From a virus, in the IMG/VR virus record IMGVR_UViG_3300045988_109839, positions 1 through 45,289 of that record: a stretch of DNA of 45,289 nt. One strand, given 5' to 3'. The notes below the pieces were generated by a model. That model saw only the letters and a program-made list of their open reading frames with translations, was not told the DNA's origin and did no database searches. Shown in pieces: positions 25,029-45,289 of the stretch (positions within the stretch are counted from its first letter, which is position 1; each line of letters opens with the position of its first letter). The translations under genes and the position numbers were made by a program.

Positions 25029-25067
25029 ATAGAATCTATAGGAAACTATAGTTATCTATTGTCTTCT

Positions 25068-25092
25068 TTTTCATGTTTGTGACCCATTAGCA
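25068..25092 (-). promoter_or_regulatory. Candidate phage-RNAP promoter (conserved motif copy), overlapping the RNAP stop codon
   Basis: Minus strand: TGCTAATGGGTCACAAACATGAAAA. Confidence 0.45.
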
Positions 25093-27684
25093 GAATATGT
25101 ACTTACTGTCCAATACACTATTCAGGTCTAAATTGCCCTTTTTAGGGGGAGCAGGTAACTCTTTATTTACCAATGGTTGCAGATATTGTCTAAACTCCTC
25201 CAAGACATCATGCTCTGTATACATATCTACAAATGCTTTACGCACAATATCATACATCAGCTTAGCTTGTGACATAGGGCAACCATAAGAATCATGCACC
25301 ATAGTAAAGTGATTGATTCCAGCATCCTTTGCTCTGCATACTGTCATTTGAAGATGACAAGCATCCATAGAGTGAATGAAATTTGGAGCGATACCATTAG
25401 CCTGTTTTGTCTTATCAATCACACCTGTTTGGTGAGGGATGTAAACCCTAAATCTCTTTCCAGCACAGCGTAACTTAATCACCTTAGATTCATACTTTAA
25501 ATAATTTTGTTGCAACAGTAAGCCTAAAGGTGTACACCAAGACACTACATTTGCATTTTTGGTGACAAGTTTGGAAACTTTATGTAACCAATCCATACCC
25601 TCAACAGCACGTACAACAGTAGCACCTACAGAGTTCCATATAAGCTCAGCCATATACATAGCACATTGGTAGGCATTAGTCTCTGTAAAACCACAAGCAG
25701 TCTTAGCATTTAAAGCAGGTTTGATTGTGTCTTCCATAATCTGTTCAGTGTAGCCACGCTTCTTAGCACCATAGGCAAGGGTCATGGTAGGTCTTTTAGT
25801 TACAGTGCGATTGACACCATAGTTTAACCAAATCTGCGCCATAGTCTTTGTTCCGAATTTTGTCTTCAGCTTTTCTTCGTCCCATTCGTCAATAGTGCCT
25901 GACATAGCATCCTGCTTCAAGACAACATTTACCTTGTCAGCCACCAAACGATAGATGTCATTGGGTTTGTCTTGGGGTACAAGGTTTACCGCAGTGCCAC
26001 CGATGGGGTCTCTAAGAATAGCAGAGAAGTGTTGCAGACCTGAGCATGTGCCATCCTGCGCATAGGGGAGACCTGTTACCCATCCGACAATAGAGCCATG
26101 CTCAGCTATCCATTGTTTCGCTTTCGCCCATTCAAGACACCATGCGAGAAGCTGTACAGGTTTTTTGTCTTTATGTAACCACCAAAGGTTACCCATAGGG
26201 TCTTTTGCTACATCAAGAATAACTTCTTCATTGTCATATACCCATTGGATGCGGTCAGCATAGCTGATTTTGTCTTCGCCGGAGAGGTTAGCTCCGGTAA
26301 TGGCGAGCCATTCAATATCTTTAGGGTCTTGACAAGGAGGTGTGTCTGAAAAGAGCAGCAATCCTTTGCAAATATCGTCACCTTGGGGACTGAAAGAGGG
26401 GATAGGATAGATGCGTCCTCTAAAATCCATGTTCCAAGGGAAATAGATGTTTTCATAAAGACTAAATTTATCAGCAACTGTAATCATAGCATTTGTACGA
26501 TTGATAATAGAAATTCGACGTTTTAAGCCTTTCCACCACGCTGCCTTATCTTTTTTATATTTTTTAATCTCTTCTGCTGTTGCCCCTTCAGGTAAGGTGG
26601 TAGGCTCAGATTCTTTTAAATCTGTACTCATGATGTGTGATTTTTCTTTACCGCAGGGGATATAGCCACGCTCCTTGCATTGCTTGATAACCTCTAAAAC
26701 ATCCTTATTGATATGCCATGGTGTTGCTTGAATAGCATTGACAGCCTTATAGACATCAGGTGTATCAAGCTGAGCAAGGCGTGCTTTATAGCCTTTACTG
26801 AAAGAGTTATGCACCCCTTTAAGACGTAAGAAAGTATAGAAAGCTGCAAGGTCTCCATAGTACCCACCCTCATCATATGCTACCCAAGGTTTTGGAGGGA
26901 TAATCATCGGATAACACTTATGTGCATAATAAAGCATATTCTCTTCATTACGTTGCCATGCATCCACGAATTGAGGGGTAGGAACAAGATGTGCTTGTGT
27001 GTAACTATCTGAATCCGACATCCAATAGCCTGTTGCTTCTTCTGTCAAAGTCAATAAGGCTACCCCTAAGTTGATAATACCTTCATTGTCTCCTTGTTCC
27101 CACGTGGGGCAGGTGTAACCACATTTCTTAATGGCTTGCTTCATATAGACATAGCGGTAATGAATACCTATACGCTTGTCAATACCTTGCATTGCTTTTT
27201 TGTTTTTGTCTTCTTTAGGTAATGTAGTAAGCCAATTTTCAAAACATTTTGCTTGATATTCATACATGAGACTAAAACCAACATGCAGTCCTACATTGTT
27301 CAGAAAGGCTGCCTTTGTATTCAAGCCTGTTGTGAGGGCATTTATAAGGCAGGAGAGTGTTACAGTTGTGCAGGTGTTAGCAATAGCATCCATATCCACA
27401 TTACCCTCTGCATCTGTGAACGCAGTCTTCAGGTCATCCAAGATATAGATAAAGTTAGGCTTAACACCAGCTTTGGGTTTCATGTTTTTAGTGAGCCATT
27501 GCAGCATAGCATCCTTTACAGCGAGTACCTTGTGGTTAAAAAAGGCTTGTCCAATAGGGAGGGCAGTATCAACCATGCCTTTTTCCTTTGCGATTCTGAG
27601 CGCTTCACATGTTGCTTCATAGCCATCTTGTCTAGCGGAAGATTCCAGCTTAAGCTGCTCTTCAAACAGTTCTTTTTTAGTCAT
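25087..27684 (-). CDS. Single-subunit DNA-directed RNA polymerase (T7 gp1-like)
   Basis: 865 aa. DGTCSGLQHFSAILRD, RTVTKRPTMTLAYGAKK, IAPNFIHSMDACHL and MVHDSYG correspond to T7 DGSCSGIQHFSAMLRD, RSVTKRSVMTLAYGSKE, IAPNFVHSQDGSHL and LIHDSFG. Confidence 0.97.
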   Translation of the reverse strand: MTKKELFEEQLKLESSARQDGYEATCEALRIAKEKGMVDTALPIGQAFFNHKVLAVKDAMLQWLTKNMKPKAGVKPNFIYILDDLKTAFTDAEGNVDMDAIANTCTTVTLSCLINALTTGLNTKAAFLNNVGLHVGFSLMYEYQAKCFENWLTTLPKEDKNKKAMQGIDKRIGIHYRYVYMKQAIKKCGYTCPTWEQGDNEGIINLGVALLTLTEEATGYWMSDSDSYTQAHLVPTPQFVDAWQRNEENMLYYAHKCYPMIIPPKPWVAYDEGGYYGDLAAFYTFLRLKGVHNSFSKGYKARLAQLDTPDVYKAVNAIQATPWHINKDVLEVIKQCKERGYIPCGKEKSHIMSTDLKESEPTTLPEGATAEEIKKYKKDKAAWWKGLKRRISIINRTNAMITVADKFSLYENIYFPWNMDFRGRIYPIPSFSPQGDDICKGLLLFSDTPPCQDPKDIEWLAITGANLSGEDKISYADRIQWVYDNEEVILDVAKDPMGNLWWLHKDKKPVQLLAWCLEWAKAKQWIAEHGSIVGWVTGLPYAQDGTCSGLQHFSAILRDPIGGTAVNLVPQDKPNDIYRLVADKVNVVLKQDAMSGTIDEWDEEKLKTKFGTKTMAQIWLNYGVNRTVTKRPTMTLAYGAKKRGYTEQIMEDTIKPALNAKTACGFTETNAYQCAMYMAELIWNSVGATVVRAVEGMDWLHKVSKLVTKNANVVSWCTPLGLLLQQNYLKYESKVIKLRCAGKRFRVYIPHQTGVIDKTKQANGIAPNFIHSMDACHLQMTVCRAKDAGINHFTMVHDSYGCPMSQAKLMYDIVRKAFVDMYTEHDVLEEFRQYLQPLVNKELPAPPKKGNLDLNSVLDSKYIFC

Positions 27685-27714
27685 TATAAATACCTCCTAG
27701 TTATAATGGGTCTT

Positions 27715-27739
27715 CTTCATGTTTGTGCCCCATTGGCAC
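27715..27739 (-). promoter_or_regulatory. Candidate phage-RNAP promoter (conserved motif copy) about 30 nt upstream of the RNAP start codon
   Basis: Minus strand: TGCCAATGGGGCACAAACATGAAGA, followed by AGACCCATTATAACTAGGAGGTATTTATAATG. Confidence 0.45.
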
Positions 27740-27954: not shown

Positions 27955-27999
27955 AAAAAATTAGAGGTACAGTTTTGTCCGTACCTCTGTTCAGTTTTT
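27955..27999. terminator. Bidirectional-looking hairpin terminator at the end of the early gene block
   Basis: The 8-bp stem agaggtac/gtacctct has T-runs on both strands (gttcagttttt on plus, aattttttg on minus). Confidence 0.6.
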
Positions 28000-28960: not shown

Positions 28961-29036
28961 TTTAAGGGTTATACAAATAACTCTTAATGAGATACACAGA
29001 TTATTACTAACCTGTGTATCCGATAAAAGTTTATTT
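28961..29036 (-). promoter_or_regulatory. Conserved early intergenic cassette, copy B (conserved flanks around a variable hairpin)
   Basis: Minus strand: AAATAAACTTTTATCGG + hairpin ATACACAG/CTGTGTAT + CTCATTAAGAG..TATAAC..CTTAAA. It shares both flanks with copy A, but the stem sequence differs. Confidence 0.55.
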
Positions 29037-29477
29037 TTCTTCTTTTTCCTCGTTGTAGTCGCTGGCAAGCTCTGTAAGCTCTTCCAACAAGCTCTCCTGC
29101 TCTTCTTCTTCCTTATCTTCTAACCAGCGTGCGATATCAGACAAATATATAAACTTGTCAATTAATCTGCTATTTGTGCAGGATACTATATGCATATATC
29201 CGTTTAGACTAATCCATGTATCATTTGGGCTATAATTGTCGCTGCTGGCTCTTCCATCGTAAAAGGCTTGCAATGGGTCAACGGGTAAAAGCAGTTCCAG
29301 CTCTTCTTCTGTATTCTGCATAATATAGTCATCTTGCAGGTTGCAGGCATTACAATAGGTATTGTGCAGCTTTACAAGGGCGTCCGCTGCTTCATCATGT
29401 TTATAATAAGGATAGTTATAATCATGCAATATATTTTCAATGGTAGACAATACAACCATGATTTCGTCATAGCTCAT
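29031..29477 (-). CDS. Early, strongly acidic protein (148 aa); candidate DNA-mimic/anti-restriction protein
   Basis: By my count, 34 of 148 residues are D or E and 9 are K or R. The C-terminal tail is acidic (EDKEEEEQESLLEELTELASDYNEEKEEK). The gene lies in the early region. Confidence 0.5.
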   Translation of the reverse strand: MSYDEIMVVLSTIENILHDYNYPYYKHDEAADALVKLHNTYCNACNLQDDYIMQNTEEELELLLPVDPLQAFYDGRASSDNYSPNDTWISLNGYMHIVSCTNSRLIDKFIYLSDIARWLEDKEEEEQESLLEELTELASDYNEEKEEK

Positions 29478-29707
29478 TTACTTGTCACCTCCTCAATCTG
29501 ATAAAGTACGTCAGCCAGGTCAAACATGCCCAGGTCAGCAGCAGCTCCACTCAGGCTGCCCATAGACAAATCACGGATAACAACTTGCAGGGTAGAGGGT
29601 TCACCCTTCAAGCAGCTTTCACACTCTCCAGCGGTTGTCACGTCGCAAGCGTCGCAACTCATATGCACCATGAGCAGCACTGCAAGGATAAGACACACAT
29701 TTTTCAT
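29474..29707 (-). CDS. Early small exported protein (77 aa; signal peptide, Cys-rich)
   Basis: N-terminus MKNVCLILAVLLMVHMSCDACD, then CESC. Good RBS. Confidence 0.5.
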   Translation of the reverse strand: MKNVCLILAVLLMVHMSCDACDVTTAGECESCLKGEPSTLQVVIRDLSMGSLSGAAADLGMFDLADVLYQIEEVTSK

Positions 29708-29733
29708 AATAATTTACCTCCTAAATCATTTAA

Positions 29734-29802
29734 TTTTAAGAGTTATAATAAGCTCTTAATGAGTACCACCGCCGGGGCGGTAGTACCGATAAAAGTTTAT
29801 TT
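29734..29802 (-). promoter_or_regulatory. Conserved early intergenic cassette, copy A
   Basis: Minus strand: AAATAAACTTTTATCGG + hairpin GTACTACCGCC/GGCGGTGGTAC + CTCATTAAGAGCTTATTATAACTCTTAAA. Confidence 0.55.
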
Positions 29803-30006
29803 GTCTCTGTAAAGCTCTATAGGCTCATGGTTTCCATACAAGACAGCCGACACCCCAAATCCCAAATCATCTACTATTAAGGTATAATCCCCCCAATAGA
29901 TATTGAATATTAACGTATAGTTTTTAATAACATACCCATTCAGCATTTTTTCCTTTTTATATCCAATTTGTTCGGGGTTATTGATATGTTTTTGTTGTCT
30001 TCTCAT
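29797..30006 (-). CDS. First early protein (69 aa), hypothetical
   Basis: ORF with a GGAGG RBS directly downstream of the divergent promoter region. Confidence 0.5.
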   Translation of the reverse strand: MRRQQKHINNPEQIGYKKEKMLNGYVIKNYTLIFNIYWGDYTLIVDDLGFGVSAVLYGNHEPIELYRDK

Positions 30007-30024
30007 TTGTTTTTGCCTCCATTC

Positions 30025-30074
30025 TGTTATACCATGTTATAACATAGTAGGTATGTTATACCTTGTTATAACAT
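30025..30074. promoter_or_regulatory. Two 21-bp direct repeats, each containing the palindrome atgttataacat (candidate operators)
   Basis: tgttataccatgttataacat at 30025-30045 and tgttataccttgttataacat at 30054-30074. They lie between the leftward promoter and the first early gene. Confidence 0.55.
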
Positions 30075-30087
30075 GTTCCATGGTTAT

Positions 30088-30116
30088 ATAATACCACATG
30101 TTGCAACAAATTGCAA
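30088..30116 (-). promoter_or_regulatory. Host sigma-70/sigmaA-type promoter for the early (minus-strand) genes
   Basis: Minus strand: TTGCAA-17 nt-TATTAT. The palindrome tgttgcaaca lies in the spacer. Confidence 0.5.
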
Positions 30117-30145
30117 TCCCTTTTAATCACTTTTTTAGATTTTTT

Positions 30146-30174
30146 TTGCAACATGTTGCCACATATGATATAAT
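30146..30174 (+). promoter_or_regulatory. Host sigma-70/sigmaA-type promoter for the RHH gene (extended -10)
   Basis: TTGCAA-17 nt-TATAAT with TGa immediately upstream of the -10. The palindrome gcaacatgttgc overlaps the -35. Confidence 0.6.
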
Positions 30175-30201
30175 GTAGACAAATAATAGGAGGTGCATAG
30201 T

Positions 30202-30390
30202 ATGCAACAAGATAAGCCACAAGATAGCTATATTAGATTAAGGATAGCAGCAGACACTAAGCAACAATTCCAACAACTATGTAAGCGCAAGGCTATTAAT
30301 AGTAGTGAGTTATTGCGTCAACTAATAACACAATGGATACATGAGCAACAGGATACTACAATCATGCACAAGCGCAGCAGCGATATATAA
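30202..30390 (+). CDS. Ribbon-helix-helix (Arc/CopG-like) DNA-binding protein; candidate lysogeny regulator
   Basis: SYIRLRIAADTKQQFQQLCKRKAINSSELLRQLITQWI fits a beta-strand plus two helices RHH pattern. ATG lies 8 nt after AGGAGG. It is one of only two credible plus-strand genes. Confidence 0.6.
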   Translation: MQQDKPQDSYIRLRIAADTKQQFQQLCKRKAINSSELLRQLITQWIHEQQDTTIMHKRSSDI

Positions 30391-30884
30391 TAGTAGCTGG
30401 TGACTGTATAATGGTAGTAGCAATAGCAACCAATGGTGACAATAGCCTTTATAGTAATACAACCAATAGCAGCTCATGGATATAATGGATGTAGTAGGGA
30501 TAGTAGATATAGTAGTTATGGTAGGTCTGATAGATACCTAGGGCATATATACAGATACATTTTATGCCTAATTTTTACCTAAATTGTACTATGTGTTCAT
30601 TATAATGTACATATGTTTGCAATATCCCCATAAAAACTAGATAGTTATATATACCTTGCTTGCTTATCTCAGGGCATAAACAAGGTAAATTTAACATAAC
30701 ATGTATTATCGGACGTAACTTGTACCCTTGGGCGCACTGATGTAGCATGCACTGTTTAGATGTAGTGTATACTATTTCGCTGGATGCCTGAAGACCCCGG
30801 GGCACGGGGGGAAACCAAGCAATCTCTATATTAAATATACCCTTTCACAATTTTTGGCAATTTTTGAAGTTAGGAGGTATTAAA

Positions 30885-32039
30885 ATGCCATCTAAACCCA
30901 CTCGTAGAAGACCTAAAGGCGAAGGGTCTATAATAACCCTCCCTAGTGGTAAAGTGCGTATCAGGGTAGAATTAGACCCTGTGGATGGCAAAAGGCGATG
31001 GCTATCAGCAACAGCAGACACAAAAAAGGAAGCTGTGGAGAAGCTGAAGAAGCTTCAGAGAGACAAAGAGGATAGAGGTCTGCAAGTAAAAGCAGAGGAA
31101 GACACAATAAAGTATCAAGGCGAGGTGTACCTTAAGCACCTAGAAGCTCAGCGGATGTCAGGGTCTGTAATATTGACCACGAGACGTGTCCTGAAGTTCC
31201 TAGACAACACCGCTAATGGCTTAGCGTTATCTAAGGTTACCACTCATACTATAGATACCATGCTCTTAGAATGGCAACAAAAGAACTATGCAACTAATAC
31301 CTATCTTAATTACATAGGACGCTTAAGGCTCTTTTTCAGATGGTGTGTGGAGCAAGACCTCATTGGAAAGTCACCTGTAACTTCGATGCAGAAGACACCA
31401 AAGAGTGATAAACCTAAGCATGAAGTGGTTGTCTTATCACAAGAGGAGCACGAGCGAATCAAAGCGTTCCTCCTGCCCCTATGGGAGCACAAGGAGAAAC
31501 CTATGCTGAAGTATCAGTTCTACGCTCTGTATTGTCTTGCCTACGAAACAGGCATGAGAGAAGGGGAGCTATTAGCTCTTACATGGGATTGTCTTGATGA
31601 TGCTGCTAATACAATATCTGTAAAAAGAACCTTAGCTAAGGATAAGAACAACAAGACTATAGTTACATACCCTAAGACACAAGCCGGGTATCGCACAATC
31701 AAAATATCTGAGAAGACAACACAGCTTCTTATGTCTTTAAAACCCCTTAGCTTTGACAAGTCACCATATATCTTCTATAATAGGAAAAGAGATAGCTTCT
31801 ATGTGGAGCGGTTGCTTATCCATGCATGGGATTTCACTAGGAAGGGCGCAGGTATCACTAGACCTTTCACGTTCCATGGGATAAGACACACAAACGCATC
31901 CAACATGATTTACAAGCATGTACCTATAGCTCTTATAACGGAACGCTTAGGACACACCAGCATAGCGGTCACCTATGCTATCTATGGGCACATCTTGCAG
32001 GAATGTTCGGAAAAACACGTTGCTGTGATAGAAGCTTAG
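30885..32039 (+). CDS. int: Tyrosine recombinase / phage integrase
   Basis: GMREGELLAL (Arg), HGIRHTNAS (H-x-x-R) and LGHTSIAVTYAIYGH (His and Tyr nucleophile). The N-terminal SAM-like region is present. RBS taggagg. Confidence 0.9.
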   Translation: MPSKPTRRRPKGEGSIITLPSGKVRIRVELDPVDGKRRWLSATADTKKEAVEKLKKLQRDKEDRGLQVKAEEDTIKYQGEVYLKHLEAQRMSGSVILTTRRVLKFLDNTANGLALSKVTTHTIDTMLLEWQQKNYATNTYLNYIGRLRLFFRWCVEQDLIGKSPVTSMQKTPKSDKPKHEVVVLSQEEHERIKAFLLPLWEHKEKPMLKYQFYALYCLAYETGMREGELLALTWDCLDDAANTISVKRTLAKDKNNKTIVTYPKTQAGYRTIKISEKTTQLLMSLKPLSFDKSPYIFYNRKRDSFYVERLLIHAWDFTRKGAGITRPFTFHGIRHTNASNMIYKHVPIALITERLGHTSIAVTYAIYGHILQECSEKHVAVIEA

Positions 32040-32241
32040 CATGTGACACTATAAAGTCACAAACAACAGGTTTTACAAGGGAATACATTGTCAAAATAAT
32101 ACAAGTTTATTACCTAGACAATATATTTCTTTATAATCTATTTGGTATAACCATATACGTGTATTGGTTAAAATATTTTCGTTAGAGCCTGTAAAGCTCA
32201 TGGTTAAGCCATTCTTGAAATAGTGGTCACTATTTTGGTCA

Positions 32242-32427
32242 CTATTGATTCAGAAGACACCTATTGATGTACTTATAGACACTATCCTCATCTATAAGCC
32301 ACCTTTTACCACATTTGAAACCCGACAAGCATTTTGACCTCACTAGCAGGTAAATCTTGTCGGGTTTATTTTGTCTTAGAATCTTAGCTGCTTCTTGGGC
32401 AGTTATAAGATTTACTTTATCAGCCAT
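32242..32427 (-). CDS. Excisionase-family / MerR-like HTH DNA-binding protein
   Basis: ITAQEAAKILRQNKPDKIYLLVRS..L.GFKCGKRWLIDEDSVYKYI fits the HTH_17/Xis pattern. It lies adjacent and convergent to int. Confidence 0.6.
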   Translation of the reverse strand: MADKVNLITAQEAAKILRQNKPDKIYLLVRSKCLSGFKCGKRWLIDEDSVYKYINRCLLNQ

Positions 32428-32966
32428 TTGTGTTGTACCATAGCACCCTTAGCTTTACCATCTGTATCTACAAGTACAGTAAGCTCTAGTGCTTTATCAG
32501 CCTGATAGTTCCTTTGGATAGAGATAGGAACATATGCATGTTCATTCACATAAGACACACCAGCACCCAGCTCCCAAGAGGGGCGCAGCTTAGACAACAC
32601 AGGAGTGAGGTCTACAGTCTGTTCTACAGTAGCCTTTACTCCCGGTGGTGCATCATTAGCAGAGCCACTAGTGCTATCAGGTTGATTAATAGTACCAGCA
32701 GTTCTTTTAACAATCGGCACACTCACTTTCTCGCCATTAATAACAGCGACGTATTTGTTAGACAACACCAAGTCCTCTTCTTTTGGGTTGTCTTTGGTCT
32801 CAGCATGGATTCCTGTGGTAGACAAAAGTCCACCCTTGGAATCTGAGCTGGGCATAGGGGGTTCTGAAGCTTTGTTGTCTCCTCTTAGATATAAGTAGCA
32901 GCACCCAGCTCCAATTGTAAAGCTCAGTAAAAGAGCGATTATATTCTTAGTTCTCGTGGTAATCAT
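32412..32966 (-). CDS. Membrane-anchored protein (184 aa), hypothetical
   Basis: N-terminal TM helix (IIALLLSFTIGAGCCYLYL), then a Ser/Pro-rich linker and a beta-rich domain. Confidence 0.5.
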   Translation of the reverse strand: MITTRTKNIIALLLSFTIGAGCCYLYLRGDNKASEPPMPSSDSKGGLLSTTGIHAETKDNPKEEDLVLSNKYVAVINGEKVSVPIVKRTAGTINQPDSTSGSANDAPPGVKATVEQTVDLTPVLSKLRPSWELGAGVSYVNEHAYVPISIQRNYQADKALELTVLVDTDGKAKGAMVQHKWLIK

Positions 32967-33433: not shown

Positions 33434-33480
33434 CAAGTATGTGACCCATTAGTTTCACAGGTTTATATGACCCATTAGCT
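33434..33480 (-). promoter_or_regulatory. Two tandem degenerate copies of the promoter-like motif (core CTAATGGGTCA)
   Basis: Minus strand: CTAATGGGTCATATAAACC (overlaps the terminase stop codon) and CTAATGGGTCACATACTTG. Confidence 0.35.
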
Positions 33481-35214
33481 ATAAAAGTTATCAACCACAG
33501 TAGCACCCCCAAATTGTGGTTGTCTTTTTCTATAGCGTTCCGGAACAAGCTCAGGATTATATTCTTTGTGTAAGACACCAAAGTCAGAATCCCACCATTT
33601 CATAAGCTGTTCTTCTTCAAGTTCATCAATGCCCTGTTGAGCATCCCTGTCTAAGCTTTCTAACCAAAAGGCAACAGCCATGGTCACAGCATCAAGCCTA
33701 TCATCATGGGCAAGTGCACCTTTATCTCTAGTGAGCCTTGTGAGCTGATAGATTAAAGAGTACTTTTGGTCATTCTCATATACCTTATAATCATCATAGA
33801 TAACAGAGGTGTTTACAATGAGCTTATGGCGCATCATAACAGGTTCGAGGGTATCAATAATACGAGCTTCTTTCTGTTTGTTGTTCTTGACTTCTGTGTA
33901 GGTGCAAGGGTGAACCTTATTCAACACAGGTTTAAAGAGCTGCCCCCACATACCATCACCAAAGTTGGCTTCAGAGACAACATCATTCACACCCCAAAAC
34001 TTACACTTATTAGCTAGGATGTTGAGGGTATCATCACCATAGCCATCACGATAGCCACCAACTTCCATGAGGAAAAGGTAACCATTGAGAATCTTGATAA
34101 CAGCATAGGCAAGTTCATCCGCACCACGTCCGGAGGGGTCAATAGCCATTACAGTACCTGTATATTTAGCAGTTTCTTTAGACCTGTCAAAAGGGGCATA
34201 GAAGAAGTCACCTTTAAGGGCAGTACAGGGTACATCCTTTAGTCGCTGTTCATATCCACTTGCCCATGACCACTTCATAGATGCTTCTTCCATGTCTAGG
34301 TCAGCCACAATAAAGTCAGCTACTTTGAGCGGATACTTTTCAGCATCAGAGAGACTAGTGTCTAAAAGAAATTGTAAAGTAAAACCTGCTTTACCATAGG
34401 ACAGTCTACGCTTAAAAATCTCTTCTTCGTTGAAGCGTAAGGGGTCAGTGGGTTTACCTGCTAATGAGGGGTCTTTATCAAGTGCATCAGCAATAAAGGG
34501 ATGTAGACGCTTCCCATAGTTATCCCTCATTTTTTGATTTTCCGGATAGACAACAGGGAAGATGACACAACTATATCCACGATTCTGTAATTCGTTGTAT
34601 AAGGACTGTTCAGACTGTGGAGTACCTAAATAAATAATTAGTCCATTGGGTTTGATGATAGAATCAAATTCCTTTACAGCTTCGCTAAGTTTGTCACGCT
34701 GCACCTGTGTACCTGAATTAGATGGAATCTCAATATCATCTGCAATCAGCAGGTCAGCACGAGAGCCTGTAATCTGACCATAGATACCTACAGACTTTAC
34801 AGAAGGTGAGATGTCAGGAACAGCAGGAGCAACATCAAACAAGTTCATTGTGTCTCTGTTGCCCTTGCTGGTATTAGGTTTAAGATGTGCAAGAAAAGGC
34901 AGTGTCATAATGATACGCTTTACGAAAATAGCGTTAGCATCAGCTCTATCTTTACCTGCGGAAACAATCTCTACTTTAATTTGAGGGTTACGCCACAGAG
35001 ACCACACGGCAAAGGCACAAGTGATAAAGCTTTTCGCTACACCACGAAACCCTTCTAAAATAGTACGGTCATTGGGACAATGTTGTAGATAATTCGCAAT
35101 AGCATATTGGATAGGGGTAGGGGACGGAAGACCAATCATTTTCCATACAATAAAAAGGAAGACCCTAAAGTCCTCCTTAGCTTTGTCAATCTGTTCATCT
35201 GTCCATTCAGGCAT
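33475..35214 (-). CDS. Terminase large subunit (T7 gp19-like)
   Basis: 579 aa. Walker A-like GFRGVAKS, Walker B LLIADDIE and a C-terminal nuclease region. It follows the small-subunit-like ORF with overlapping stop and start. Confidence 0.88.
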   Translation of the reverse strand: MPEWTDEQIDKAKEDFRVFLFIVWKMIGLPSPTPIQYAIANYLQHCPNDRTILEGFRGVAKSFITCAFAVWSLWRNPQIKVEIVSAGKDRADANAIFVKRIIMTLPFLAHLKPNTSKGNRDTMNLFDVAPAVPDISPSVKSVGIYGQITGSRADLLIADDIEIPSNSGTQVQRDKLSEAVKEFDSIIKPNGLIIYLGTPQSEQSLYNELQNRGYSCVIFPVVYPENQKMRDNYGKRLHPFIADALDKDPSLAGKPTDPLRFNEEEIFKRRLSYGKAGFTLQFLLDTSLSDAEKYPLKVADFIVADLDMEEASMKWSWASGYEQRLKDVPCTALKGDFFYAPFDRSKETAKYTGTVMAIDPSGRGADELAYAVIKILNGYLFLMEVGGYRDGYGDDTLNILANKCKFWGVNDVVSEANFGDGMWGQLFKPVLNKVHPCTYTEVKNNKQKEARIIDTLEPVMMRHKLIVNTSVIYDDYKVYENDQKYSLIYQLTRLTRDKGALAHDDRLDAVTMAVAFWLESLDRDAQQGIDELEEEQLMKWWDSDFGVLHKEYNPELVPERYRKRQPQFGGATVVDNFYS

Positions 35215-35584: not shown

Positions 35585-35851
35585 TTACTGAGGACGTTTT
35601 AACTTCTTACCTTTTAATTCTTCAATGTAATCTGTTTTATTGGTATCCACAAGACATACATCATATGTCTTAGATAAGGTACGGATAGCAGCAGCAGTTC
35701 CTTTACCAAAACGGAAAGACCACAGAGGACACTTGCAGATATGACAATCACGGATGTTATCAGAAGTACCTGCACAGTCCATGCATTTTAAACGGATAGC
35801 ACGAGTGAGTGAGGGTTTCTTAATATCAGCGATATACACTTTTTTAGCCAT
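35585..35851 (-). CDS. Small Cys-rich (zinc-ribbon-like) protein
   Basis: CMDC..(10)..CHICKCPLWSFRFGK. ATG lies 6 nt after GGGGGTGA and overlaps the end of nrdD. Confidence 0.5.
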   Translation of the reverse strand: MAKKVYIADIKKPSLTRAIRLKCMDCAGTSDNIRDCHICKCPLWSFRFGKGTAAAIRTLSKTYDVCLVDTNKTDYIEELKGKKLKRPQ

Positions 35852-38012
35852 GGAAGTCACCCCCTAAATGAATAAAGCGGTCTCTAATCTCCTCAGTACG
35901 CCCCTGATTCCAAAACTGACTGCCTAAATATCCGCAGGTTCTACGTGTCACGTTCATCTTGGTTTTGTCTCTGTTACCACAATTTGGACACTCCCACTCC
36001 AATCTACCATTATCTGTGACAATCTTAATCTCACCATCATATCCACAGACCTGACAATAGTCACTCTTGGTGTTCAGCTCTGCATACATAATGTTGTCAT
36101 AGATAAATTGAATAACAGCCATAACTGCATCAATGTTTTTGGTCATATCAGCACACTCAATGTAACTGATAGCACCACCCGGACTGAGCAATTGAAACTC
36201 AGATTCAAATTGCAATTTGGTGAAGGGGTCAATAGGCTCACGTACATTCACATGATAGCTATTAGTGATATAGTCATGGTCAGTGACTTCTTTAATCACC
36301 CCAAAGCGTTCACGGAGACATTTAGCAAATTTATATGTGGTGGTTTCCATAGGAGTACCATAGACACTATAGCCTAAGTGCTCCTTAGCTTTCCATTCAG
36401 CACACTTGTCATTAAGGTGCTGCATGACAGAGAGAGCAAAGGTTTTCACAGCAGGGTCAGTATGGGATTTACCAAACATTGCCATGCAGCACTCATAGAG
36501 ACCTGCATAACCAAGGGAGATAGTGGAGTAGCCATTTTCCAGCAGCTTGTCAATCTTCTCACCTTTTTGCAGACGAGCAATAGCACCATACTGCCAATGA
36601 ATAGGGGAGACATTAGAGATTGTACCTTTAAGGTTTTGGTGTCTTACACGCAAGGCTTTGTGGCACAGTTCCAAACGCTCATCAAGAATAGACCAAAATT
36701 TGTTTTTGTCTTTGCCAGCAGACAGCGCAACATCCACAAGGTTGATGGAGACAACACCTTGGTTGAAGCGCCCATAGAATTTAGCTTTGCCATTTTCATC
36801 AAGATAGGGTGTCAAGAAGCTTCTGCATCCCATAGGTGGATAGCAATGCCCAACACCATCTTCAGTCTTCTTGTTCTTCAGCATAATCTTCTCAGACAAA
36901 TAATCAGGTTGCATACGCTTAGCAGTACATTTAGCACACATCTCTGTAAGGTAATAATAGGGAGTACCCTTACGGATGTTGTCTTCCTCTAAGACATAAA
37001 TCAGCTTAGGAAAGGCAGCAGCAATCCATGCACCCTTTTCATTCTTGACACCCTGATAGCGTTGACGAATGATTTCCTCAATAACCATAGCAAGGTCTTT
37101 CTTTTCCTGCTCATTCTTAGCTTCATTGAGATATAGAAATAAGGTAACGAAAGGTGTCTGACCATTGGAAGTCATAAGGGTGTTAATTTGATATTGCATG
37201 GTTTGAACACCTCTAGTGATTTCAGCTTTCAGTCGCTTTTCTGTGATACGCTTAATATCATCATAAGAATAGTCTCCTGCTCCAATAGCTTCTAGTTCTT
37301 GTGCAAATTCTTCTCTAATTTTTTGTCTAGAGATATTGACAAATGGAGCTAAATGTGCTACCGACACACTTTGACCACCATATTGATTAGAAGCAACCTG
37401 TGCCATAATCTGAGTAGCAATATTGCAAGCAGTAGCAAAGCTGTGTGGCTTCTCAATCAGCGTACCATTGATTACAGTGCCATTTTGAAGCATATCTTCC
37501 ATGTCTAACAGAGCGCAGTTGTACATCTTTTGGATAGCATAGTCCATATCATGTACATGGATGATACCTTCTTTATGTGCCTTCATTACATCCGGAGGGA
37601 ACAACAGCTTTTCAGAGAGTTCCTTAGAGACCATACCTGCCATATAGTCACGTTGGGTAGACAAAATAACAGGGTTCTTATTAGAGTTTTCCTCATTCAC
37701 ATCTTGGTTGCTGAGGTTGACAATATCAAGGACTTCACTCAAAGCACCTTTGGTATTACGAATAAGCTCACGTTTATAGCGGTAACGCACATACTCTCTA
37801 GCTACCTCAGGGTAGTAGTTAAGCATAAGCTCAGTTTCTACAAAATCTTGTATTTTCTCCACAGTTAGTGTTTCTTTTTTTGCTGCCATTTCGATGAGTG
37901 TAGCAATAGTCTTTTTCAGCTTTAATGGCACATAGCCAGCCTTAGATATAGCATTAATGATTTTGTCTTTATTAAAGTCTACGAGAGACCCATCACGTTT
38001 TTTAATTTTCAA
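35844..38012 (-). CDS. nrdD: Anaerobic ribonucleoside-triphosphate reductase (class III), NrdD
   Basis: 722 aa. N-terminal ATP-cone-like MKIKKRDGSLVDFNKDKI. C-terminal zinc site CQVC...CPNC. Glycyl-radical motif RRTCGYLGS. TTG start. Confidence 0.93.
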   Translation of the reverse strand: MKIKKRDGSLVDFNKDKIINAISKAGYVPLKLKKTIATLIEMAAKKETLTVEKIQDFVETELMLNYYPEVAREYVRYRYKRELIRNTKGALSEVLDIVNLSNQDVNEENSNKNPVILSTQRDYMAGMVSKELSEKLLFPPDVMKAHKEGIIHVHDMDYAIQKMYNCALLDMEDMLQNGTVINGTLIEKPHSFATACNIATQIMAQVASNQYGGQSVSVAHLAPFVNISRQKIREEFAQELEAIGAGDYSYDDIKRITEKRLKAEITRGVQTMQYQINTLMTSNGQTPFVTLFLYLNEAKNEQEKKDLAMVIEEIIRQRYQGVKNEKGAWIAAAFPKLIYVLEEDNIRKGTPYYYLTEMCAKCTAKRMQPDYLSEKIMLKNKKTEDGVGHCYPPMGCRSFLTPYLDENGKAKFYGRFNQGVVSINLVDVALSAGKDKNKFWSILDERLELCHKALRVRHQNLKGTISNVSPIHWQYGAIARLQKGEKIDKLLENGYSTISLGYAGLYECCMAMFGKSHTDPAVKTFALSVMQHLNDKCAEWKAKEHLGYSVYGTPMETTTYKFAKCLRERFGVIKEVTDHDYITNSYHVNVREPIDPFTKLQFESEFQLLSPGGAISYIECADMTKNIDAVMAVIQFIYDNIMYAELNTKSDYCQVCGYDGEIKIVTDNGRLEWECPNCGNRDKTKMNVTRRTCGYLGSQFWNQGRTEEIRDRFIHLGGDFHG

Positions 38013-42659: not shown

Positions 42660-43211
42660 TTATCTCCTCATCTGAGGAAAATTAGCATAAAATTTTTGTT
42701 TGTCTGCATACATTGCTTTTTCGGCATATGCTGTGATTTCTGCAATATCCGAGAAGACACCAGCAGAGTAGCCTAAGGCAGCTAGGGGAGGGTTGTCTTT
42801 ATTCCATAGGGATTTATGGAAAGACAATACACTTCCAAGGAACTCATGAATTTTAATATCAAACCCAGCTACTATAAACTCATCACCTGATATATGATAA
42901 CAGTTATAAACAGGGGAGATAAAGGTCTCCTTAAGCTTAGCTGCAAAGTCCTTTATCAGCTTATCCCCTGCACTGTGTCCAAAGTGGTCATTGGTATATT
43001 TCAGACCATTGATGTCTGCGAAAAGGATACCAACGAAACCAAAGTGATTAGTGGTACTGTCACGCTCAAAGGCTTGCTTATTGTACAGTCCGGTGAGAGC
43101 ATCACGCATAGCGCCCTGCTCATAGATACGAGTTATGTCCGCTAAAAGTTGGGCATAGCTATTTTTAAACTGTTGCTGTATTTCACGTTGAATATCAGCA
43201 CTTAATTCCAT
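42660..43211 (-). CDS. Stand-alone GGDEF-domain nucleotide cyclase (putative diguanylate cyclase; SGDEF active-site variant, no I-site)
   Basis: DALTGLYNKQAF, FADINGLKYTNDHFGHSAGD, HISGDEFIV (encoded at 42877-42891) and AEKAMYADK are collinear with the GGDEF-domain consensus. Only about 35 aa of N-terminal helix are present, with no sensor domain. No RxxD lies 5 residues upstream of SGDEF. Confidence 0.8.
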   Translation of the reverse strand: MELSADIQREIQQQFKNSYAQLLADITRIYEQGAMRDALTGLYNKQAFERDSTTNHFGFVGILFADINGLKYTNDHFGHSAGDKLIKDFAAKLKETFISPVYNCYHISGDEFIVAGFDIKIHEFLGSVLSFHKSLWNKDNPPLAALGYSAGVFSDIAEITAYAEKAMYADKQKFYANFPQMRR

Positions 43212-44077: not shown

Positions 44078-45289
44078 GGTAGATTGCAAGTGCAAATTGA
44101 ACAAGATTTATCAAGCAACTATATCAGTAGAATACACCTTATCAAGAAAAGTGTCGAACAGTTCATCAGGTCTGTAGTAGCCTAGAGATTTGCGTGGTCG
44201 AGCATTCATCTTATCGGCCATGCGCAGTATCTCGTCCGCTGAATATTCGTCAACAGATTTACCTTTCGGCAGGTACTGACGCAACATCTCGTTGTGACGT
44301 TCGTTCTGTGGGCGTTCCCATGAGGAGAACGGATGCGCAAAGTATATCTTCGTCCCGTAGCGTTCCTCGTACTTATTGAAGTCTTGAAACTCGGCACCAT
44401 TGTCAGCGGTAATGCTTTTAAATACAGCGCTAAACCGCTTGCCGTATAGCCGTCGTAGCTGTGCCATAGCCTCCTGTACTCCTTTTGTGGTGCGTCCGGA
44501 TATCTTTATGGCGATGTACTTATGCGTAACCATCTCTACTAGAGTGAATACGCATGATTCCTTGCCCTCACGGTGACCAATGACAGTGTCAGCTTCCCAG
44601 TGACCTATCTCGAGCCGCTCAGCGATTTTCTTTGGACGTTGGTCGATGCTAGTGCCGCGTAACCGCTTATGCTTGCGTGTCCAGTTGCGATGCTTCTTAC
44701 GGTTCAGCAGTTGTGGCACATCAAAGACGGTAAATGGTAGCTTGCTGCGATGTAGCATGTTGTAGATGCTCTTGGTGCATAGTATCTGATTAGGCGCATA
44801 GCGAGACTCCAACTTAACCCTGCCGATGAACTCATCAATAGAGGCGGTCTCATCCCTGACGGCGGTGCTCAACTCTTGGATGAACGCTTCGGCAACGGTA
44901 GTGGCTAACTTTAACGGCCTGCGGCAGTTCTTGCGATGCTCTTCATAAGCAGCTTGACCGCGCTTGGCGGTGTATACTGGCTGACGTCCTCTAGCGCTCT
45001 TCTTGACCGGTGTACCTCGGCGCAGCTCATAATATACCGTGGTATGAGCACAGCCTACGTACTCGGCAATAGCACGAAGCGTTAGACCTTGACTATGTAG
45101 CACTTGAATCATGCCACGTTCTTCTTGGATTAGATGTTTTCCTCGTTTACGTTTTTCTTGAATTGTGATAGAATTAGTTTGATCCATAGTAGGCTCCTTT
45201 GAATTATACTAGCAAACTAATTCTAACATAGGATGTCCACTGTGGATTTTTTATTTTATTTTTTGTTCAAGTTGATTATACAATCTACC
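44078..45289 (-). mobile_element. IS30-family insertion sequence (1212 bp)
   Basis: 27-bp imperfect terminal inverted repeats (ggtagattgcaagtgcaaattgaacaa versus ggtagattgtataatcaacttgaacaa, 21 of 27 identical). It holds a single DDE transposase ORF, is flanked by a 13-bp direct repeat, and looks visibly more G+C-rich than the flanking phage DNA. Confidence 0.88.
44111..45187 (-). CDS. IS30-family DDE transposase
   Basis: 358 aa. N-terminal HTH (GLTLRAIAEYVGCAHTTVYYELRRG). HWEADTV..., ITADNGAEF and ERPQNERHNEMLRQYLPKG are IS30-type D, D and E regions. tataat and AAAGGAG lie upstream. Confidence 0.92.
   Translation of the reverse strand: MDQTNSITIQEKRKRGKHLIQEERGMIQVLHSQGLTLRAIAEYVGCAHTTVYYELRRGTPVKKSARGRQPVYTAKRGQAAYEEHRKNCRRPLKLATTVAEAFIQELSTAVRDETASIDEFIGRVKLESRYAPNQILCTKSIYNMLHRSKLPFTVFDVPQLLNRKKHRNWTRKHKRLRGTSIDQRPKKIAERLEIGHWEADTVIGHREGKESCVFTLVEMVTHKYIAIKISGRTTKGVQEAMAQLRRLYGKRFSAVFKSITADNGAEFQDFNKYEERYGTKIYFAHPFSSWERPQNERHNEMLRQYLPKGKSVDEYSADEILRMADKMNARPRKSLGYYRPDELFDTFLDKVYSTDIVA

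Follow-up and report, generated by a model that had tools for sequence, protein, structure and literature searches.

Lysogeny genes in a T7-like genome

The virus genome IMGVR_UViG_3300045988_109839 (positions 1-45,289 of the IMG/VR record; this whole 45,289-nucleotide stretch is the window, to which all coordinates refer) carries between 30025 and 32427 what looks like a lysogeny module: genes for a small regulator of predicted ribbon-helix-helix (RHH) type, a tyrosine integrase (Int) and an Xis-like protein, together with a phage attachment site (attP). T7-like phages are textbook virulent phages, and the surrounding genome is of T7 type, as a preliminary description of the window, made from its letters alone, had held. 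A single-subunit RNA polymerase (RNAP) gene (25087-27684, minus strand; Pfam RNA_pol, PF00940, E = 5.6e-100; PHROG 414, E = 1e-227) is accompanied by a T7-type large terminase gene (33475-35214) and a gene for a protein with a T7 tail-fibre N-domain, and genes for T7 primase-helicase, SSB and endonuclease I are seen in the ENA assembly of the same genome (precomputed Pfam matches). These core genes, from primase-helicase, SSB and endonuclease I to the tail fibre N-domain and the terminase, are collinear on a single strand; PF22530 and PF03906 are among their Pfam matches. The RNAP is 34-37% identical to T7-like RNAPs over 98% of its length and at most 37% identical to that of any cultured phage; a nucleotide search of the module against 50,697 GenBank phages gave no match, and there is no close relative in culture. 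Because gene order wraps around its ends, the window represents a circularly permuted assembly of a genome of about 45 kb, and because int, attP and xis are contiguous, it represents the free, non-integrated form.

Nearly all long open reading frames (ORFs) in the window lie on the minus strand. The regulator and Int genes are the only credible plus-strand genes, as had been noted, the other plus-strand ORFs of at least 90 aa overlapping long minus-strand genes. The regulator gene (30202-30390) encodes 62 aa and begins at an ATG with AGGAGG 8 nt upstream; a GTG at 30193 overlaps this Shine-Dalgarno sequence. On the same strand, int (30885-32039) begins 3.2 kb from the start of the RNAP gene and encodes a 384-aa tyrosine integrase (Pfam Phage_integrase, PF00589, E = 6.6e-24; PHROG 1, E = 6.5e-58) whose catalytic residues R225, K264, H331, R334, H357 and Y367 align with those of solved integrases. 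The set is complete, in agreement with the intact R...HxxR...Y series read earlier, and residues 1-82 have no Pfam match. The 61-aa Xis-like protein is encoded on the minus strand (32242-32427) by the last gene of the late operon, which overlaps the preceding ORF by 16 nt; its helix-turn-helix, also recognised earlier, scores above threshold for HTH_17 (PF12728, 31.6 bits against a cut-off of 27), and the protein matches PHROG 66.

The proposal that the 62-aa protein is an RHH regulator is backed by Pfam RHH matches below threshold, by a match to PHROG 876 ('transcriptional repressor') and by structural similarity. Its family, known solely from this phage group, numbers 76 clusters with identities of 61% or more, and many close homologues carry precomputed PF10723, PF01402 or PF19839 matches. 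A sequence-profile search of the PDB with the family gave only ParG (E = 0.46) besides spurious RNase H matches, and comparison of folds told more. An AlphaFold 2 (AF2) model built on the family alignment has a predicted local distance difference test score (pLDDT) of 82 overall, with a mean of at least 90 for residues 11-50; in it, the N-terminus is extended and two helices come after it, at 17-29 and 34-58. DSSP calls no strand in this monomer model. In Foldseek, nearly all of the top ~30 matches were RHH proteins, including CopA_SO, ParG, ParD, AtaR, CopG, Arc and PutA, with target-normalised template-modelling (TM) scores of 0.8-0.88, root-mean-square deviations of ~1 Å for short DNA-binding-domain chains and a probability of 0.99. 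An RHH fold for the predicted repressor is supported. The C-terminal tail (HKRSSDI), which is conserved but modelled with low confidence, may serve for partner binding or as a degron.

Integrated relatives and the attachment sites

A search for this sequence as an integrated prophage had been proposed as a check on its temperate nature. Integrated relatives were found, and attL, attR, attP and the empty bacterial site (attB) were all resolved to the nucleotide; with the regulator, int and xis genes intact and the integrated relatives 92-95% identical to the window over the late region, the claim of a lysogeny module in a T7-type genome stands. More than 12 independent assemblies contain the matching junctions, among them a Phascolarctobacterium metagenome-assembled genome (MAG).

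On one side of the prophage, L056, a contig of 114 kb that a scan of one genome per species found in the MAG of an uncultured Phascolarctobacterium, has the order host purL (encoding FGAM synthase), core, int, regulator gene, early genes and RNAP gene; its Int is 97% and its RNAP 65% identical to that of the window, and similarity to the window stops at 32175. Six IMG/VR contigs (L021, L023, L024, L026, L030 and L032) stop at the same nucleotide, and another (L027) stops two bases short of it, at the contig end; the purL-side host flank is the same in L021, L023, L030 and L032. On the other side, the exact Xis protein of the window was found on 15 contigs, and in 8 of the 10 shown it marks the end of a T7-like late region abutting host thiE-thiM-thiD, with similarity to the window beginning at 32167. 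The prophage is laid out with int at one end and xis at the other, next to thiE. Intact attP sites, as expected of free forms, are present in the window and in L020, L025 and L036.

Because the int-side and xis-side similarities overlap at 32167-32175, the former ending at 32175 and the latter beginning at 32167, these 9 bp (GTTAAAATA) are the common core of attP. Read on the other strand, TTTTAAC within it is a stretch of 7 bp identical in every att site. The P arm on the int side (32040-32166) contains an inverted repeat (TGTGAC..GTCACA, 32042-32061) and an outward-facing, promoter-like TTTACA-17-AATAAT (32072-32100), and it remains beside purL in integrated copies. The P' arm on the xis side (32176-32241), which spans the 66 bp between the core and the end of xis, is conserved in all xis-side junctions. 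Two direct repeats of TGGTCACTATT (32224-32234 and 32236-32246) are candidate arm-type or Xis sites; GTCACTAT, within TGGTCACTATT, matches the core of the lambda Int arm-type consensus (C/A)AGTCACTAT, a resemblance that may be coincidence.

The unoccupied site was recovered as well: a 25-mer composed of host flanks and core located the empty attB, between thiE and purL, in 38 contigs from human-gut metagenomes. Wherever both host flanks could be aligned up to the junction, the distance from the purL side to the thiE side is exactly 9 bp. A tRNA-based att site was considered and rejected, there being no tRNA in the window, in L056 or at the junction. Other host flanks were seen twice, in L026 (1-820, a region with an Rpn/PDDEXK_2-like gene) and in L060 (10262-12400, with a GNAT acetyltransferase gene), where the xis-side flank still begins ACACAT after the core; these flanks point to secondary attachment sites or to other host species.

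The attB core is situated in the thiE-purL intergenic region, ~40 bp upstream of the purL ATG. In the empty site (L071, 7830-7898) a promoter-like TGGATA-16-TAAAAT with a TGn motif comes after a thi-operon terminator. Because the TAAAAT element, which resembles a -10 box, lies inside the 9-bp core, integration is expected to split the likely purL promoter: TAAAAT stays beside purL, and everything upstream of it becomes phage P arm. The int and purL genes share the same orientation, the TTTACA-17-AATAAT of the P arm faces purL, and no terminator was detected after int. On this arrangement of sequence elements, phage-driven purL expression in lysogens is plausible.

Divergent promoters and candidate operators

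The regulator and int diverge from the early lytic genes across an intergenic region first given as 185 bp; the region is there, although the gap measures 195 bp if the regulator starts at the ATG at 30202. Both of the back-to-back promoters proposed for it were found in place, each with a TGn motif. P_L, the predicted leftward early-lytic promoter (30088-30116, minus strand), has a -35 TTGCAA (30116-30111), a 17-nt spacer and a -10 TATTAT (30093-30088), and P_R, the predicted rightward promoter for the regulator and probably int (30146-30174, plus strand), reads TTGCAA-17-TATAAT; a 32-nt inverted duplication contains the two. Promoter-like matches are not enriched in the region (12 found against 11 expected from shuffles), and scan counts were not used as evidence; the promoters are credible because they are conserved in relatives. 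Among the four types of locus described below (A to D), the P_L -10 block (GGTTATATAATACCA) is kept across types A to C, with a few bases different in the single type-D locus, and a good P_L -35 (TTGCAA, TTGCAT, TTGACA or TTGACT) occupies the same position in all four; the P_R -10 TATAAT is conserved in all types. P_L is the sole conserved sigma-70-type promoter directed at the early genes.

Repeats surround both promoters. The two 21-bp direct repeats reported earlier recur at 30025-30045 and 30054-30074 and are 95% identical. The first, candidate operator OL1, pairs the decamers TGTTATACCA and TGTTATAACA in tandem and lies beside the ribosome-binding site (RBS), within the leader of the leftward transcript; type-A relatives keep it, and a type-specific palindrome stands in its place in types B, C and D. 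The second copy is candidate operator OL2. Palindromes had also been placed over both -35 elements, which is correct for GCAACATGTTGC, overlapping the rightward -35, and not for TGTTGCAACA (30099-30108), which lies in the leftward -10/-35 spacer. The latter falls within candidate operator OL3 (30096-30109), the palindrome ACATGTTGCAACA in the P_L spacer, whose position is taken in type B by TGTAGCTACA and in type C by CACTACA. A fourth candidate, OR (30144-30164), is made up of tandem decamers TTTTGCAACA and TGTTGCCACA over the P_R -35 and spacer, and type-specific tandem motifs take its place in types B, C and D. The consensus TGTTRYAACA occurs four times in the window against 0.49 expected (~8-fold), with three of the four exact copies within 30035-30108; stoperator-like dispersal of operators through the genome was rejected on this distribution.

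The first early gene to the left (29797-30006, minus strand; 69 aa) has no Pfam or PHROG match and no known domain. Where type A has its second 21-bp leader operator, loci of types B and C (e.g., L056, 6440-6500) carry an inverted repeat with an 8-bp stem (ATAGAGAG..CTCTCTAT in type B, TAGGGA..TCCCTA in type C), followed by a T run on the leftward transcript, which looks like an attenuator.

Operator sequence covaries with the regulator N-terminus

Switch regions were extracted from 24 relatives. Within the regulator, residues 23-62 (the C-terminal 40) are nearly invariant, and the N-terminal ~22 residues, a variable and presumably specificity-determining module, fall into at least six types, distinguished by the predicted strand: DSYIRLRIAAD in type A, to which the window belongs, DTVIRVRVPQ in type B, DVFIQVRVPK in type C, TAIIKLRVSQ in type D, TTNIIIRVDR in type E and RIVLQIRLEK in type F. 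A single arginine, R14, is invariant in all of them. Promoter positions and RBSs are conserved among the relatives, and the repeated palindromes change with the regulator type: TGTTATAACA and TGTTGCAACA in type A, TGTAGCTACA in type B, TGTAGTG..CACTACA in type C, and GTGTAC and TGTGGACACA in type D. Sites occur at the same three places, in the leftward leader by the first RBS, in the P_L spacer and at the P_R -35/spacer. Counted over the 21 loci of types A to C, own-type sites number 2-4 each (3+3 in type A, as 3-4 and 3; 2-3 in type B; 2-4 in type C), and there were no cross-type matches.

Because operator sequence covaries strictly with the type of the regulator N-terminus, comparison of these loci argues that the RHH protein binds the operator palindromes. 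The outer TGT/ACA of the sites is common to all types, in keeping with the invariant R14, and differences at the inner bases go together with those among the strand residues. BLAST breakpoints at ~30265, inside the regulator gene, and at ~30077 indicate that the regulator N-terminus and the operators recombine as a cassette. In one contig (L030, ~2390-2830) there are two tandem RHH genes, one of type C; the second, upstream copy is divergent (MQYYNAKDKDAIMQIRLPISLREDF...) and has the same C-terminal tail.

At least four unrelated genes were seen in the first leftward position, with no relation to immunity type. The first leftward gene was rejected as a Cro analogue, being swapped independently of the type and having no DNA-binding match. 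The layout had been called that of a classic genetic switch. A lysogeny module with divergent promoters and candidate operators is present; it is not a CI/Cro-type switch with two repressors, no Cro being conserved: rather than two antagonistic repressors on shared operators, we found one DNA-binding protein linked to the operators.

A probable int leader and the proposed route to the phage RNA polymerase

Between the regulator gene and int lies a conserved non-coding spacer of 494 nt (30391-30884, plus strand), 77-92% identical in 21 relatives and probably the int leader. Two ORFs within it (49 aa on the plus and 76 aa on the minus strand) were rejected as genes, not being conserved in relatives, and a TAG-rich tandem array with a 9-bp unit (30479-30524, found with TRF) differs in copy number among relatives. 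Hairpins in the spacer are kept mainly through one-sided, G-U-compatible changes. The best supported (30743-30782) has variation in 11 of its 13 pairs, with pairing kept in 95-98% of cells; RNAalifold predicted 66 pairs over the spacer, 97.8% paired, with compensatory changes in four pairs only, and shuffle controls gave 9-12 of 500, inside the range possible without structure. Support for RNA structure in the spacer is thus no more than suggestive, and an Rfam search of 29500-32600 found nothing meaningful.

At the other end of the early region, a strong hairpin resembling an intrinsic terminator (27963-27988, minus strand; a 10-pair stem, then a T run) separates the RNAP gene from the last of the early ORFs, and we infer that it gates RNAP expression. 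A conserved 26-mer, TGCYAATGGGGCAYAAACATGAAGAA (27713-27738, minus strand), just upstream of the RNAP RBS is a candidate promoter for the phage RNAP; it has three copies against 0 expected, the others being just after the RNAP gene at 25067 and 24884. The 26-mer was rejected as a genome-wide consensus for phage promoters, there being only three copies even when three mismatches are allowed. The ~230 nt between the hairpin (27988-27963) and the 26-mer are rich in GAAACGAAACG and GCAAGCAAGG repeats. An intergenic element of the early region, consisting of CTCTTAATGAG, a GC-rich hairpin and CCGATAAAAGTTTATTT, occurs at 29744-29806 and 28972-29040 and in 2-3 copies in the early regions of relatives; by analogy with the sites between T7 early genes, it may be a processing or termination site.

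Host and accessory genes

The host genus is Phascolarctobacterium, to judge from the MAG contig L056, and one homologue of the regulator is labelled by NCBI as coming from an uncultured Phascolarctobacterium. This genus belongs to the Negativicutes within the Bacillota; its members are anaerobic and diderm and stain Gram-negative. Of the anaerobic Gram-positive host that had been suggested, anaerobic growth holds, but not a classical Gram-positive envelope. An anaerobic ribonucleotide reductase gene (nrdD, 35844-38012) in the phage fits a strictly anaerobic host.

Two further genes are of note. An IS30-family transposase gene (HTH_38 plus rve domains; 44111-45187, minus strand) lies between the gene for a 1398-aa internal virion protein and the tail-fibre region, and the identical protein was found in bacterial chromosomes, e.g., beside pyruvate:ferredoxin oxidoreductase genes and a gene for an SLH/YadA-anchor protein. 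The element looks like a host insertion sequence that jumped into the phage, and its identity with host copies is consistent with a stay in the host chromosome. Just upstream of the tail fibre gene, a 183-aa GGDEF-domain protein (42660-43211, minus strand; Pfam E = 6.3e-14), kept in integrated relatives, may be a phage-encoded diguanylate cyclase.

Discussion

In our interpretation, the lysogeny module in the window is functional, is built on an RHH-based switch and belongs to a temperate T7-like phage that infects Phascolarctobacterium; we put the probability of this reading, on comparison of sequences, at roughly 0.78. Upon infection, host RNA polymerase would use the back-to-back promoters P_R and P_L, the former yielding the RHH protein and, by read-through over the 494-nt leader, Int, and the latter yielding the early genes and, beyond the terminator, the phage RNAP. 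A dimer of RHH dimers would bind the paired 10-bp sites in the P_L spacer, in the leader (OL1 and OL2) and over the P_R -35 and spacer. Binding at P_L and in the leader would close the sole host-dependent route to the phage RNAP and so silence the whole genome, and binding at P_R would autoregulate the RHH gene and int. Int without Xis would integrate the genome; because xis is the last late gene, Xis would be made only after derepression, when the lytic programme runs, and excision would follow, giving directionality without additional regulators. The first ~22 residues of the RHH protein and the operators would be exchanged together as an immunity cassette, which would come in at least six specificities across the phage population, and no Cro-like second repressor would take part.

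A stronger version of this proposal has the 62-residue RHH protein as the sole immunity repressor, one host-dependent promoter gating the genome, no Cro or SOS-cleavable domain and at least six interchangeable cassettes, and has integration replace the upstream half of the purL promoter, so that purL in lysogens is driven by int read-through or by the TTTACA-17-AATAAT of the P arm. Taken as a whole it is tentative, and we think it rather doubtful that every element of it is correct.

Several observations weigh against interpreting the window as a working, RHH-controlled module. All of its functional components (binding, repression, promoter activity, integration and induction) derive from comparative sequence analysis. 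Assignment of the repressor to the RHH superfamily draws on Pfam matches to RHH_9, RelB and RHH_1 (E = 1e-4 to 8e-4) that fall just under the gathering scores (22.4 against 23.4 for RHH_9 and 19.7 against 20.5 for RHH_1) and on Foldseek E-values of ~0.1, which are no better because the domain is tiny. A 62-aa RHH protein without a protease or cleavage domain offers no evident route to inactivation. Loci of types B and C have a weak P_R -35, and an unrecognised terminator or a promoter for int alone could lie in the 494-nt gap between the regulator gene and int. It is also unusual for xis to close the late operon, and its product might act in regulation and not in excision. Finally, the int-side and xis-side junctions were read from separate contigs.

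The small size of the RHH protein and its want of a sensor or cleavage domain also raise the question of whether it is merely accessory, as an autoregulator of its own gene and int or as an Arc/Mnt-like modulator, with lysogeny maintained by another repressor or in a different way. The RHH proteins of P22, Arc and Mnt, are secondary regulators, and many early ORFs of the window have no annotation. However, since the RHH gene and int are the sole plus-strand genes, no other candidate regulator points away from the lytic genes, the type-specific sites lie within the P_L spacer and leader and not at P_R alone, and the downstream early genes vary independently of immunity type; we consider an accessory role unlikely. 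It is more improbable still that the repeats are bound by another factor, either of the host or a Cro-like early protein, and that their covariation with the RHH protein reflects linkage in a recombining cassette. The RHH N-terminus does adjoin the operators, so that linkage alone would give co-inheritance, and OL1 and OL2 lie downstream of the promoter, which is uncommon for a simple repressor. Yet that N-terminus is the only coding sequence in the co-inherited block besides the variable first leftward gene, of which at least four unrelated versions pair with the same operator type. Moreover, the variable residues fall on the predicted DNA-reading beta-strand, the invariant arginine fits the invariant TGT/ACA, and tandem 10-bp units suit binding by a dimer of dimers, which is established for the RHH proteins Arc, CopG and omega.

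The question of whether the module functions at all arises because stable lysogens were not obtained for several integrase-bearing T7-like phages (PMC10134795), and the module here might similarly be a decaying remnant, its integrated copies cryptic and the free phage effectively virulent. Decay is hard to reconcile with the intact int, xis and RHH genes, which are 94-100% conserved across backbones whose RNAPs are 65% identical (94-98% for Int itself). In addition, integrated copies retain full-length late genes, and free attP, integrated and empty attB forms all occur in gut metagenomes. Of the explanations considered, this one strikes us as the least credible, and we retain that of a functional module controlled by the RHH protein.

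Temperate T7-like phages or T7-like prophages are already known from a Pseudomonas putida KT2440 prophage, Pelagibacter phage HTVC019P, Agrobacterium phage Pasto and Pseudomonas phage LUZ100, in which a MarR-like regulator co-transcribed with int has been proposed and att sites are tRNA-linked; for LUZ100, a terminator and a phage promoter have been proposed to gate the RNAP (PMC10134795). In addition, a 2025 survey of gut prophages notes in one sentence that Autographiviridae prophages occur mainly in Phascolarctobacterium (PMC12748750), and such prophages in this genus are thus not new. The view in the preliminary description that integrase-bearing T7-like phages are mainly marine is outdated in light of those from Pseudomonas, Agrobacterium, Pelagibacter and others (PMC10134795) and of the Phascolarctobacterium Autographiviridae prophages (PMC12748750). 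In the searchable literature we found no description of an RHH-based divergent switch, of cassette-like immunity types, of an attP between int and xis or of an attB in the purL promoter.

The window shares with Pasto, HTVC019P and LUZ100 the T7 gene order, the single-subunit RNAP and a module of co-oriented regulator and tyrosine integrase genes just upstream of the early genes and RNAP, with a regulator proposed to hold the phage RNAP off, and it shares with LUZ100 a terminator and a candidate phage promoter ahead of the RNAP gene. It differs in that the regulator is a 62-aa RHH protein with no MarR match in Pfam or PHROG, that the module diverges from the early genes rather than running in line with them, that attP lies between int and xis, that attB is an intergenic promoter region (thiE-purL) rather than a tRNA gene, and that the host is a gut Negativicute. 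Marine cyanopodoviruses of the P-SSP7 group likewise combine a T7-like backbone with a tyrosine integrase; they carry, or integrate at, att sequences derived from tRNA, and no RHH switch has been described for them, whereas all four att forms were recovered here in silico.

By analogy, the switch may work like a lambdoid immunity region that lacks Cro and uses an Arc/CopG-type fold. Like the imm-lambda, imm434 and imm21 regions, it has divergent promoters with a shared operator logic, and the recognition part of the repressor and the operators appear to be exchanged as a cassette, giving heteroimmune types; like the lambda int-xis-attP region, it has a short common core (7-9 bp), arms with repeats and a small Xis. 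Unlike in lambda, there is no Cro partner, no CI-type helix-turn-helix and no LexA-like cleavage domain; xis sits at the far end of the late operon, with attP separating it from int; a single promoter would control everything through the phage RNAP; and one recombination breakpoint is inside the repressor gene, presumably because only the first ~22 residues read DNA. With P22 Arc and Mnt and plasmid CopG and omega, the regulator shares a beta-alpha-alpha fold (Foldseek matches include Arc, CopG, ParG and ParD) and ~21-bp operators of two adjacent subsites overlapping promoter elements, although sequence similarity is marginal (E = 0.46 for the profile match to ParG). Moreover, Arc and Mnt control the antirepressor region (immI) of P22 rather than primary immunity, and the window has neither an ant gene nor plasmid functions.

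The phage described here is a well-resolved temperate T7-like phage from the human gut, where its host is an abundant, succinate-consuming anaerobe. Its control circuit would be very small, with one tiny repressor, one early promoter and the phage RNAP as amplifier. The six strand variants of the RHH protein and their matched palindromes constitute a data set from which an RHH recognition code, and orthogonal repressor-operator pairs, might be derived, and, with attB mapped inside the promoter region of purL, lysogeny may well alter the control of a core metabolic gene. T7-like phages of the gut should accordingly not be presumed strictly lytic, for example in phage therapy or when lifestyles are assigned to virome sequences.

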